The notes under the pieces: generated by a model
Databases searched by the model: none
The model's input: the letters and a program-made list of their open reading frames with translations, nothing else
Told to the model about the DNA's origin: nothing
Program-made: the position numbers and the translations under genes
Source: an uncultured Haloferula sp.
GTDB taxonomy: Bacteria; Verrucomicrobiota; Verrucomicrobiia; Verrucomicrobiales; Akkermansiaceae
Reading direction: 5' to 3'
NCBI GenBank assembly: GCA_965652295.1
Contig: CBFGTS010000001.1
Coordinates: forward strand, 288,001-352,000
DNA length: 64,000 nucleotides
Shown here: positions 52,029-54,382 of the stretch, piece after piece
Position numbering within the stretch: the first letter of the stretch is position 1
How the letters are laid out: each line of letters opens with the position of its first letter

Positions 52029-52261
52029 GTACACTCCGAATCCCAAAGTACACCTGAGGTACACCGCAAGTTCCCAAGATGGACGGGGAGGGTGGTTTTC
52101 TAAAAAAACAGACCCTTGTTTAAGCCGTTTAGAAGGACTTGGAACACTGAAGTCCACTGGAAAACACCTCGTAACTCACTGATTGATAGTGATTTAAAAA
52201 TTATTCACAACGGCTCGAATTTCTCTTGCGGGTTTTAGTGTACTTTGGTGTAGTTGGCGCA
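52029..52261. promoter_or_regulatory. dcw/mraZ promoter region with candidate MraZ boxes, IHF-like site and DnaA box
   Basis: TACAC/TCCC boxes at ~10-bp period (52030-52075); GTGTA at 52238 and 52248; TAACTCACTGATT at 52172; TTATTCACA at 52201; TTGCGG-N17-TGTAGT. Confidence 0.55.
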
Positions 52262-52287: not shown

Positions 52288-52743
52288 ATGTCCGCAACCG
52301 TCCAGAATCTGGAGAACCACTTTGTCCACAAGATGGACTCGAAGAACCGCGTGTCGGTTCCGACCGAGTTCCGTTTGGTGGAGGAGGGGACGCCGATTCG
52401 GATCATGCGCTCCAGCGAGCACGGCGAGCCGGTGATCAAGGTGTTCACCGAGGATCACTACCAAGGGAAGTTCGAGGAGATCGAGCAGGCCGAGGGGCTG
52501 CTGCCCGCCAAGAAGAAGCAGCTCGTGAGCGCGCTGCGCATGTTTTCCAAGCAAGTGACCATCAGTCCCCAGGGCAAGCTGACGCTGCCGAAGGACTGGT
52601 GCGACAAGGTCGGCCTCCGGGCCGAAGAGCACGCGGTCCTCGGGGGCTGCGGCGATTATTTCATTATCTGCAGTCAGGACGCCATGACCCGCATGGAGGA
52701 GAGCCTCCGCGATCTCGACGACGGCGGCCTCGGCGTCCTGTAA
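52288..52743 (+). CDS. mraZ: Transcriptional regulator MraZ
   Basis: HKMDSKNRVSVP..FR and second repeat QGKLTLP...G.GDYF.I; head of dcw cluster. Confidence 0.9.
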   Translation: MSATVQNLENHFVHKMDSKNRVSVPTEFRLVEEGTPIRIMRSSEHGEPVIKVFTEDHYQGKFEEIEQAEGLLPAKKKQLVSALRMFSKQVTISPQGKLTLPKDWCDKVGLRAEEHAVLGGCGDYFIICSQDAMTRMEESLRDLDDGGLGVL

Positions 52744-52864
52744 CCAAGATTTTCACCCAACGAACGACGACATGCTGTTCGCCCAACCAACCCTGGCATC
52801 CGGCACCACCCGCCCGGAAGCACCCACTTCCTCCTTCGGGCGGATGTCGGGGTTGGGCATGTTT

Positions 52865-53419
52865 TTCCAGCCGCGGCCCGGAGCAATCGGGACAGCGCTT
52901 TGCGCCGTGGCTACCCAAACGGTTGTCCGCTCCGGTTTCCATGGCTGGTTTGCGGAGCGGCGACCGGTGATTTCCCAGGCTGAGCGGAAGGAGTTTCTCG
53001 GGACAGTACTCCTTTCGCCGATTACCCCGCGTGTCCGTGCCGGTTTCCATGGCTGGTTTGCGGCACGGACCGCGGCATTTTTTTCCAACGACACTCCGGC
53101 TCCGTCTCTCGGGACAGCGGCGGCACCGGAGTCACTCATGACGGTTGTCCGCTCCGGTTTCCATGGCTGGTTTGCGGGGCGGCGACCGATGATTTCCCAG
53201 GCTGAGCGGAAGGAGTTACTCGGGACAGCACTCCTTTCGCCGATTACCCCGCGTGTCCGCGCCGGTTTCCATGGCTGGTTTGCGGCGCGGACCGCGGCAT
53301 TTTTTTCCAAAGTAGCTCCGGCTCCGTCTCTCGGGACAGCGTCGGCTCCGGAGCTTCGCAAAACGGTTGTCCGCTCCGGTTTCCATGGCTGGTTTGCGGA
53401 GCGGCGACCGGTGATTTTC
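52865..53419 (+). repeat. Five-unit, 111-nt-period structured tandem array (222-nt higher-order repeat)
   Basis: TCGGGACAG at 52887/52998/53109/53220/53331; CCGGTTTCCATGGCTGGTTTGCGG at 52932/53040/53154/53262/53376; flanking stems covary. Confidence 0.95.
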
Positions 53420-54382
53420 ATGAGCGAGTCGGCCGAAGGCGGCGCTTGCGACTACCACCTGTCGGTCCTTCCGGAGGAAACGAAGCATTGGATGGCCGCA
53501 GGGCCGGGGAAGTTCATCATCGATGGCACCCTCGGCGGAGGCGGCCACAGCGAGGCGTTTCTCAAGGACGGAGCACGCGTGCTCGGAGTCGATCGCGATC
53601 CCGAGGCCATTGCCTACGCCAGCGCACGGCTGGCCCCGTATGGCGACCGCTTCCGCACGTGGCATGGAAACTTTGCCGATCTCTGTGAAGATCCCGAGAT
53701 CCAGGGGGGAGAGCGGGCCGACGGTCTGCTCCTGGATCTCGGGGTGTCTTCCCATCAGCTCGATGCCCCGGAGCGGGGCTTTTCGTTCATGCGCGAGGGC
53801 CCGCTCGACATGCGCATGGGCCCGGCGGTGGAAAAGACCGCGGCGGATCTGGTCAACACCTGGTCCGAGGCGGAAATCGTCCGCATCCTCCGCGAATACG
53901 GCGAGGAGCCCAAAGCGCGCCGGATCGCGGCCGCCATCGTCCGCCAGCGGGCGGAGAAGCCGTTTTCCACGACCACCGACCTCGCCGGCTGCATTGAAAA
54001 GACGGTCGGCCGCAGCGGTCGCACCCATCCGGCCACCCGCGCTTTTCAGGCGATCCGGATCGCCGTCAATGACGAGCTCGGCTCGCTGAGGAGAGCGTTG
54101 GAGGCTTCCATCCATCTTCTGAAGCCCGGAGGACGGTTGCTGGTCATCACCTTCCACAGCCTCGAGGACCGGATGGTGAAACAATTCATGAGGGATCGGT
54201 CCCGGGAATGGATCGACCAACCCCAATGGCCGGAGCCACGGCGGAACCCCGACCGGGTCTTCCGGCTGCCACAGTTGAAGGCGATCGCCGCAACCCCTGA
54301 AGAAATCCAAGTCAATCCCCGGGCCCGCAGTGCGAAACTGCGGGTCGCCGAGCTTCTGGACCCAGCCGAAACCGCACCATGA
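53420..54382 (+). CDS. rsmH: 16S rRNA m4C1402 methyltransferase RsmH (core; frame open back to ATG 52772)
   Basis: HLSVL, DGTLGGGGHS, DLGVSS.QLD..ERGFSF, FQAIRIAVN.EL, ITFHSLEDR, NPRARSAKLR. Confidence 0.96.
   Translation: MSESAEGGACDYHLSVLPEETKHWMAAGPGKFIIDGTLGGGGHSEAFLKDGARVLGVDRDPEAIAYASARLAPYGDRFRTWHGNFADLCEDPEIQGGERADGLLLDLGVSSHQLDAPERGFSFMREGPLDMRMGPAVEKTAADLVNTWSEAEIVRILREYGEEPKARRIAAAIVRQRAEKPFSTTTDLAGCIEKTVGRSGRTHPATRAFQAIRIAVNDELGSLRRALEASIHLLKPGGRLLVITFHSLEDRMVKQFMRDRSREWIDQPQWPEPRRNPDRVFRLPQLKAIAATPEEIQVNPRARSAKLRVAELLDPAETAP

Follow-up and report, generated by a model that had tools for sequence, protein, structure and literature searches.

The nearest described element by place is the mraW motif of Actinomycetales (RF01746), which presumably lies in front of mraW/rsmH; the tandem RNA array considered here, found in the window (the whole 64-kb stretch of Haloferula DNA that was analysed), likewise lies between mraZ and the RsmH domain. 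According to the accessible text of its description (PMC2864571), the mraW motif is structured as well, its fixed loop being carried by a variable stem, but it is a single hairpin with the loop CUUCCCC, whereas each unit of the array comprises two hairpins with the fixed words GGGACAG and GGCUGGUU. Moreover, the mraW motif is found in another phylum, while the array is embedded in the rsmH frame and occurs also in phages. The RF01746 covariance model did not match the array at the gathering score or at E-values up to 10, and the array is thus not a member of this family, either by model or by loop. In the open literature searched, no description of the two-hairpin element was found. In line with the original prediction of an undescribed element, an Rfam scan gave no match to the array, the nine hits over it being chance-level and all far below gathering, and at the gathering score the window holds only a tRNA (1248-1320; nusG, G000:C1:289649, also lies at the window start).

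Other known systems share single traits with this array. Type III antitoxin (ToxI) arrays occur in hosts and are imitated by pseudo-ToxI RNAs of phages, which resembles the combination of a host tandem array of structured RNA with a phage mimic. The units described here are, however, three times longer and consist of hairpin pairs, and the downstream gene is rsmH instead of a toxin gene. ToxI units are pseudoknotted and cleaved into monomers; in the array, the predicted pseudoknot of GGACA with TGTCC is possible in 58 of 196 units and is hence not general. ANTAR targets are dual hexaloops with A1 and G4, and CsrB-type sponges expose GGA loops. The array shares with both the tandem fixed-loop hairpins, and the hexaloop CGGGAC of hairpin 1 contains GGA; in contrast to ANTAR targets, loop 1 lacks the initial A and loop 2 is not a hexaloop. 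The proteins of these systems were sought as partners: CsrA was found in none of 41 genomes (control positive in 3 of 14), an ANTAR protein in none of three array-bearing and one of two array-free genomes, and ToxN (PF13958) in none of five genomes, with a control that was likewise silent. REP/BIME elements occupy many loci per genome, the array a single one. MraZ binds GTG-type DNA boxes spaced by about 10 bp, as far as the accessible part of PMC12957436 describes them, whereas the period of the array is 108-114 nt. Two opposite sets of GTGTA/TGGGA-type words with 9-11 bp spacing, located 5' of mraZ at 52237-52261 (+) and 52030-52076 (-), are probably such MraZ boxes.

In other phyla, structured RNAs in or ahead of mraZ-rsmH-ftsL-ftsI are also represented by the decay-generated dcw ncRNAs of enterobacteria (PMC6156199) and by UpsM of Rhodobacter (PMC8266604). 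In the accessible text of these two papers, they exhibit reduced synonymous change, as does the array, but are single-copy, and phage copies go unreported there; by Rfam, their sequences are unrelated to the array. Finally, the put RNA of phage HK022 is, according to the accessible text of PMC9378689, a phage-borne element of about 70 nt with two stem-loops that affects elongation without a phage protein. It binds the beta-prime zinc domain of RNA polymerase and suppresses termination. The stems of put abut at one base, whereas the linker within the array units, which are longer at 90-109 nt, has a median of about 6 nt by MFE. put lies near its promoter; the host array lies ~600 nt after the presumed mraZ promoter, and the phage copies lie behind stop codons. 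Also unlike put, the array carries fixed bases in its apical loops and is repeated in tandem in the host.

The five units listed in Table 1 are real: the TCGGGACAG motif recurs four times at exactly 111 nt, as had been predicted, while the second hairpin is repeated at 108/114/108/114 nt. This alternation indicates that the array is built from a 222-nt A-B dimer (2.3 copies, 92% identity) in the order A-B-A-B-A. Unit length is about 105-111 nt, all stems quoted in the original prediction are present in the sequence, and the 64-kb window contains no other array with a period above 42 nt. In both B units a scanner reports small terminator-like hairpins (53054-53075 and 53276-53297), which overlap the 3' arm of hairpin 2, precede the 7-T run and would preclude the formation of hairpin 2.

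Table 1. Features at the array locus (positions in the window) and sites of the phage units
Feature	Position	Strand	Details
mraZ (151 aa, divergent)	52288..52743	+	ORF; weak Pfam MraZ match, E 0.0018, below cut-off
rsmH from conserved MLF..P start	52772..54382	+	536 aa; 5' extension of about 216-228 codons, RNA-bearing
P0 long hairpin	52781..52858	+	arms CCAACY / GGGUUGG; fold z -2.6
Unit 1 (type A)	52865..52973	+	TCGGGACAG of hairpin 1 at 52887; CATGGCTGGTT of hairpin 2 at 52940
Unit 2 (type B)	52976..53081	+	motifs at 52998 and 53048; then CA and 7 T
Unit 3 (type A)	53087..53195	+	motifs at 53109 and 53162
Unit 4 (type B)	53198..53303	+	motifs at 53220 and 53270; then CA and 7 T
Unit 5 (type A)	53309..53417	+	motifs at 53331 and 53384
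Internal ATG 3' of array	53420..53422	+	ATG at corresponding stretch in 14/50 loci; not conserved
RsmH/MraW methyltransferase domain	53456..54352	+	Pfam PF01795, E 1.2e-101, residues 229-527
Phage unit L376			between protease/scaffold-like gene and major head gene
Phage unit L377			between spanin-like gene and portal gene
Phage unit L380			between small tail-fibre-like gene and large unknown gene
Phage unit L399			behind portal-like gene (label by inspection), inside possible 54-codon ORF

The array had been placed between mraZ and rsmH. Its location at the junction of mraZ and the RsmH domain holds, but it is not intergenic: a single open frame (52772-54382) extends from the ATG at 52772 across the five units and on into the RsmH domain, and the array lies within a conserved in-frame 5' extension of rsmH. 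The assignment of mraZ draws support from syntenic homologues 5' of rsmH in 17 relatives listed. Across the genus of the window (g1) and the related genus g18, the extension opens with MLF or MWF and then a proline or serine in 40 of 49 loci listed, two of the other nine being cut by contig ends. When the units were placed solely by their nucleotide motifs, no stop interrupted the RsmH frame in 49 of 49 loci, whereas the two remaining plus frames were open in 7 and 10 of 49. Between the last unit and the His-x-x-Val of RsmH, 36 of 50 loci have no ATG and 26 of 50 have no ATG, GTG or TTG; hence RsmH must start in or before the array, and the ATG at 53420 is atypical. Among 25 further named or metagenomic loci, the units are in frame with rsmH in 19, end before rsmH in three and show one-base slips in three; the slips are mended within the unit (peptide LGTA to GSGQ), so that the frame still reaches RsmH although the peptide is altered. 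The array is thus probably translated in vivo. RsmH gene calls start at arbitrary points in the extension and range from 394 to 536 aa.

P0 starts about 9 nt after the rsmH AUG in the window, and about 10-15 nt after it when the orthologues are included; similar hairpins occur in genera without the array, so that P0 is the older of the two. Many relatives carry a second, more distant rsmH paralogue with a short frame (E about 1e-60 to 1e-75; e.g. G007:C8:2264-3136). In the small shares of RNA runs that were covered, a 151-nt contig from a metatranscriptome library spans 52832-52982 with two differences; it does not count as evidence of transcription.

Every unit in the window folds as two hairpins (z -2.9 to -4.1 versus dinucleotide shuffles), hairpin 1 with the hexaloop CGGGAC and hairpin 2 with the loop UGGCU/CAUGGCUG. 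When 110 of 128 non-redundant units were aligned, 83.5% of the cells were paired, compared with 68.6% after shuffling and 35-49% after sliding, with hairpin 1 (74%) being less regular than hairpin 2 (90%), and both sides change in 23 of 27 stem pairs of this alignment of relatives' units. RNAalifold applied to the full alignment returned hairpin 2 only, since the register of hairpin 1 differs between unit types; hairpin 1 was therefore defined from anchored covariation. The comparison of 57 orthologous unit pairs, drawn from 17 disjoint genome pairs chosen to limit kinship effects, yields 82 double changes that keep pairing and 18 that break it (single changes: 112 and 73, respectively), whereas 15 ± 3.5 pair-keeping double changes were obtained in 1000 randomisations. 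The predicted selection on RNA structure is borne out by these data, and, judged from its sequence, the two-hairpin unit is a real, covarying and hitherto undescribed RNA family.

The invariance of the loops in this alignment arises by construction, as the units were cut on the loop words. Codon counts were anchored on amino acids, which leave the codon free. The loop words GGGACAG and GGCUGGUU turn out to be fixed even at wobble positions. In g1, the Gly-Thr codons are GGG in 120 of 121 and ACA in 120 of 121 cases, and in g18 GGG in 72 of 76 and ACA in 65 of 76; every leucine that follows tryptophan is encoded by TTG (77 of 77; 76 of 76), as is every histidine by CAT (92 of 92). The same codons are far from fixed in the RsmH core (GGG 197/975, ACA 33/468, TTG 115/1079, CAT 84/242). 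Consistently, over 18 disjoint genome pairs the array exhibits dS 0.27, dN 0.19 and dN/dS 0.71, as opposed to dS 0.86, dN 0.11 and dN/dS 0.13 for the RsmH core; the most distant pairs are near saturation. The sequence data thus show selection at the nucleotide level. Each unit has about 20 fixed bases, spread over its two loops and an internal loop, whereas the stems vary freely. In 144 of 196 units the fold of the plus strand is the more stable one, and two pairs alternate between C-G and U-G only; both observations point to the transcript and not to a DNA hairpin.

These findings bear on the view that the repeated peptide GT...GW[LF] is itself functional, as a low-complexity arm of RsmH, with the hairpins being incidental. 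Such a role would account for the frame being open in all 49 loci, for a dN/dS slightly below 1 and for the occurrence of the extension peptide on RsmH only (13 of 13 homologues; near-length search, 8000 candidates). It is at odds with the fixation of rare codons, with stems that covary through non-synonymous changes, with local slips that rewrite the peptide, and with phage copies that are out of register (see below). AlphaFold likewise predicted no fold for residues 1-228 (pLDDT <50), albeit from a shallow alignment of 17 sequences. We consider this view scarcely credible; the extension peptide appears to be nearly free of constraint, with a dN/dS of 0.71 allowing for weak peptide selection.

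The array is present in 34 of 35 genomes of its own genus, with five units in 25; the one genome lacking it is 72% complete, and its sole rsmH match scores like the second paralogue. An assembly artefact is excluded, since the array recurs in 33 of the 34 remaining genomes of the genus, including three single-contig ones. Genome scans with a covariance-type model, in which the best 33-150 candidates per genome were scored, located the array in 12 of 12 g1, 12 of 12 g18 and 1 of 1 g26 genomes of the family, with 2-8 units, whereas none was found among the best candidates scored in 95 genomes of 17 other genera of the family. In other families of the phylum, with strict filters and the best 26 candidates each, 150 genomes yielded none beyond the own genus. 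In relatives, the matches group at rsmH or at the ends of contigs, which corresponds to one locus per genome among the candidates scored, and the array is thus present at the orthologous rsmH locus across the genus as well as in g18 and g26. A 16-nt pattern with two mismatches, applied to 201 genomes, was too noisy for counting. Among 80 of at least 120 stretches scored, single pattern matches in other phyla reach at most 22 bits, and all 63 matches of at least 30 bits fall into 15 multi-unit loci. The record titles of multi-unit loci, among the matches listed, read Verrucomicrobiales, Akkermansiaceae, Luteolibacter and similar, and one extension-peptide match is named Haloferula luteola. Three loci (L154, L199, L183) are titled Prosthecobacter or Akkermansia and carry typical arrays, while the sampled other families and genus g16 are without the array; these titles may be loose. 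In an RsmH-core tree of 44 rows (thinned to 9 g1, 9 g18 and 4 g16), a branch with support 97/91 separates the 19 array-bearing rows from all others. The array hence has, on this phylogeny, a single origin followed by vertical descent.

In sister genus g29 (L104, L105), a simpler in-frame repeat forms hairpin-1-like stems with the loop UGGGAC. These repeats are mostly preceded by an unfolded UGGCUGG, and in 68 of 196 full-array units a similar word stands before hairpin 1. In place of the array, RsmH of g16 (L109-L116) and g32 (L103) has at its N-terminus a domain of about 190-230 aa that weakly resembles a Y1 (IS200/RAYT-type) transposase, with Pfam PF01797 E-values of 0.004-0.03, below cut-off, in three of four tested. 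This domain may be a domesticated nucleic-acid-binding domain occupying the slot of the array.

The distribution also speaks to the idea of a selfish or mobile palindrome, akin to REP/BIME or Rickettsia palindromes, that was inserted in frame and then amplified. Alternating A-B dimers, Y1 transposases in the genome, a sister lineage with a Y1-like domain fused to RsmH in the corresponding place and the sporadic occurrence in phages would all be in keeping with such an origin. A dispersed mobile repeat is nevertheless excluded by the single locus in the genome: BLAST, the covariance model and a loose two-motif scan of the own genome detected the five units and one poor chance match, without any second locus. 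Given one locus in each genome scored, stems that vary freely while pairing is kept, and vertical descent from a single origin, this idea is very improbable, being largely refuted by the non-dispersal.

Five pattern scans of viral contigs combined with model scoring (80 of at least 117 stretches in the first scan) revealed, among the matches listed, four distinct units in six viral contigs with 46-58 bits; the other viral pattern matches listed, which share the loop words by selection, reach at most 25 bits. All four phage units form the two hairpins of the host unit, on stems that are new and paired throughout (z -2.0 to -3.8). Each is single and on the late-gene strand, with GGGACA located 23, 23, 24 or 32 nt after a stop codon (Table 1). 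The distance between the loops equals 1 mod 3 for 188 of 196 host units but for none of the four phage units, and neither stop-codon read-through nor a common small ORF emerged across the four, which have no shared frame. When the family was searched, the closest cellular matches of the phage genes were prophage genes, namely a portal gene at 68% in g1 and capsid genes at 82-83% in g18 and g28, so that the phage hosts probably belong to this family. The unit is absent from all 23 related viral loci (two duplicates omitted; one locus without upstream DNA) and from all 18 prophage loci, a relative with a 93% identical capsid being among these loci, and blastn against a cultured phage collection gave no match.

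The slots occupied by the phage units are themselves variable. In L376/L431, hairpin 2 and a U-rich tail lie where seven of nine relatives have a terminator-like hairpin and a U-run before TTGAC, and one relative has a tRNA-Met there. The conserved TTGAC before the capsid gene can be read as a promoter, although a scanner made no call. In L380, hairpin 2 is directly followed by 5 U, so that a U-rich tail follows at once in two of four phage units, while L377 and L399 have no U-run after hairpin 2; a consensus terminator scanner called hairpin 2 in neither L376 nor L380. In the unit of the portal group, a GGGGACCAC word forms part of the 3' arm of hairpin 2; several relatives lacking the unit retain this word. 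Regarding these loci more generally, GGGGACCAC is conserved upstream of the portal gene in L446-L455 with variable inserts ahead of it. About 170 nt before the major head gene of L431-L443, a conserved leader between TTGAC and the capsid start features the words CGGACCAC/GGATCAC, GATCACC, a CCCG hairpin and GAGTGA. This capsid leader may be another structured RNA.

Taken together, the evidence leads us to favour, tentatively, a module that would be recognised by a factor, control transcription elongation into the dcw operon and be kept under translation. That phages carry a single copy of the host unit suggests that a host factor reads the RNA. The two fixed loop words would then be read by RNA polymerase or by an elongation, termination or RNA-binding protein of the host, with the stems merely presenting them, and the module would act in cis on the nascent transcript to decide whether transcription continues. 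The host would stack 2-8 copies, usually five in the own genus, at the head of the >11-kb dcw operon and, requiring a translatable stretch, keep them in the open rsmH frame, so that the ribosome could pass, RsmH could be made, and folding would be coupled to translation, with the extension peptide as a passenger. Phages would sometimes gain one copy at a late-region gene boundary, and a plain boundary or terminator would thereby come to answer to the host factor. Within this model, the structure, the nucleotide-level selection, the plus-strand bias, the frame constraint, the single origin and the phage copies with their position follow from the sequence itself, while we infer translation in vivo, that a factor exists and what it is, that it acts on elongation and which way its effect goes.

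The slot in the phages and the U-rich tails point to the control of elongation or of transcript ends. A run of at least 3 U occurs within 12 nt after hairpin 2 in 185 of 196 host units; the runs mostly comprise 3-4 U at a distance of 3-5 nt. Intrinsic terminators have a GC-rich stem with a long U-run immediately after it; a U-run sits directly at the stem in only 6 of 196 host units, and a U-rich tail does so in two of four phage units. Since the host runs are short and rarely at the stem, host units do not look like standard terminators. As far as the accessible text of the respective sources goes, put alters elongation as RNA alone (PMC9378689), and structures just 5' of terminators suppress termination (bioRxiv 10.64898/2026.06.17.733018). 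Several considerations weigh against the favoured elongation module. The host U-runs are short, the phage hairpins lack either a U-run or a scanner call, put sites lie just after promoters while the phage copies follow stop codons, and the dN/dS of 0.71 allows for weak peptide selection. Furthermore, a single bound copy suffices for a put-like effect, so that the tandem copies are left unexplained by put-like action, and the absence of the phage units from close relatives argues against a cis-element needed for late expression. Regarding possible readers of the RNA, two genes with a Rho RNA-binding domain are present in five of five family genomes tested (G000:C11:128642, G000:C10:120495), and a second NusG-like gene in four of five; as they occur with and without the array, they do not discriminate. 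Inspection of MraZ sequences by eye gave no array-linked feature.

Sporadic spread among phages, a variable slot and tandem dose may also be viewed from the opposite side, since for the phages a decoy fits equally well. In one such scenario, the unit would be cut or trimmed from the rsmH message, persist as a stable RNA and bind in trans to a core protein of the host, for example a division regulator or a restrained toxic protein, with the copy number setting the dose; phage copies would titrate it and thereby secure a division block or an escape from an abortive response. The patchy occurrence in unrelated phages with none in 23 relatives, the slot filled by tRNA-Met in one relative, a position at transcript 3' ends that would leave a stable fragment, and tandem copies that vary in number all agree with this scenario, and stable RNAs cut from coding regions of the dcw operon offer an enterobacterial precedent in the accessible part of PMC6156199. 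It is harder to reconcile with an array that is vertical and universal in its clade, unlike patchy defence systems, with the absence of CsrA in 41 genomes and of ToxN in 5 (where the control was also silent), and with a processed RNA not being visible in thinly sampled RNA runs; we regard it as the main rival, though a rather unlikely one. Also on the unlikely side is the related proposal that the extension of RsmH is disposable and hides an RNA ligand of a division protein, of which unrelated phages would repeatedly take one copy as a decoy. If true, phages would arrest division or dodge a shut-off sensor by means of an RNA mimic of a housekeeping mRNA element, a kind of mimic for which no example was found in the literature searched. 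A cis role in the host and a decoy role in the phages can both hold.

RNase control of mraZ/dcw messages has reportedly been described in a Corynebacterium paper on RNase III. The units might serve as signals for processing or for blocking decay, and thereby determine how stable the mraZ and downstream parts of the dcw message, as well as the late messages of phages, would be. Strong stems at gene boundaries, the long conserved P0 stem and, in the accessible text of PMC8266604, RNase control of mraZ/dcw messages in other phyla lend this some appeal. Protection by stems or cleavage by RNase III would, however, not need ~20 fixed loop bases in two hairpins, and we regard this explanation as improbable.

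The same fixed bases, which lie in both loops and the internal loop of otherwise free stems, would suit a small-molecule aptamer in which the two loops dock and tandem copies sharpen the response. The proposed kiss between GGGA and loop 2 has exact TTCC in 96 of 196 units and U-Y-Y-Y in 175 of 196, although these bases also pair within hairpin 2 and the loop is invariant. Riboswitch classes usually serve several related genes. The array, by contrast, occupies a single host locus, no expression platform was found, and phage late genes and dcw are without an obvious common metabolite; an aptamer is thus quite improbable.

Our results describe an RNA family that is absent from Rfam and covaries strongly at the head of a cell-wall and division operon, in a phylum whose regulation has been little studied. 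The phage copies are a natural minimal version, indicate that the RNA works without the peptide and represent a bait for pulling down the partner; what emerges would be a put-like elongation RNA encoded by the host or else a novel decoy used by phages. Finally, a regulatory RNA array that is hidden in a frame-preserved coding extension, as the one ahead of the RsmH domain in Haloferula and its relatives may be, escapes intergenic searches.
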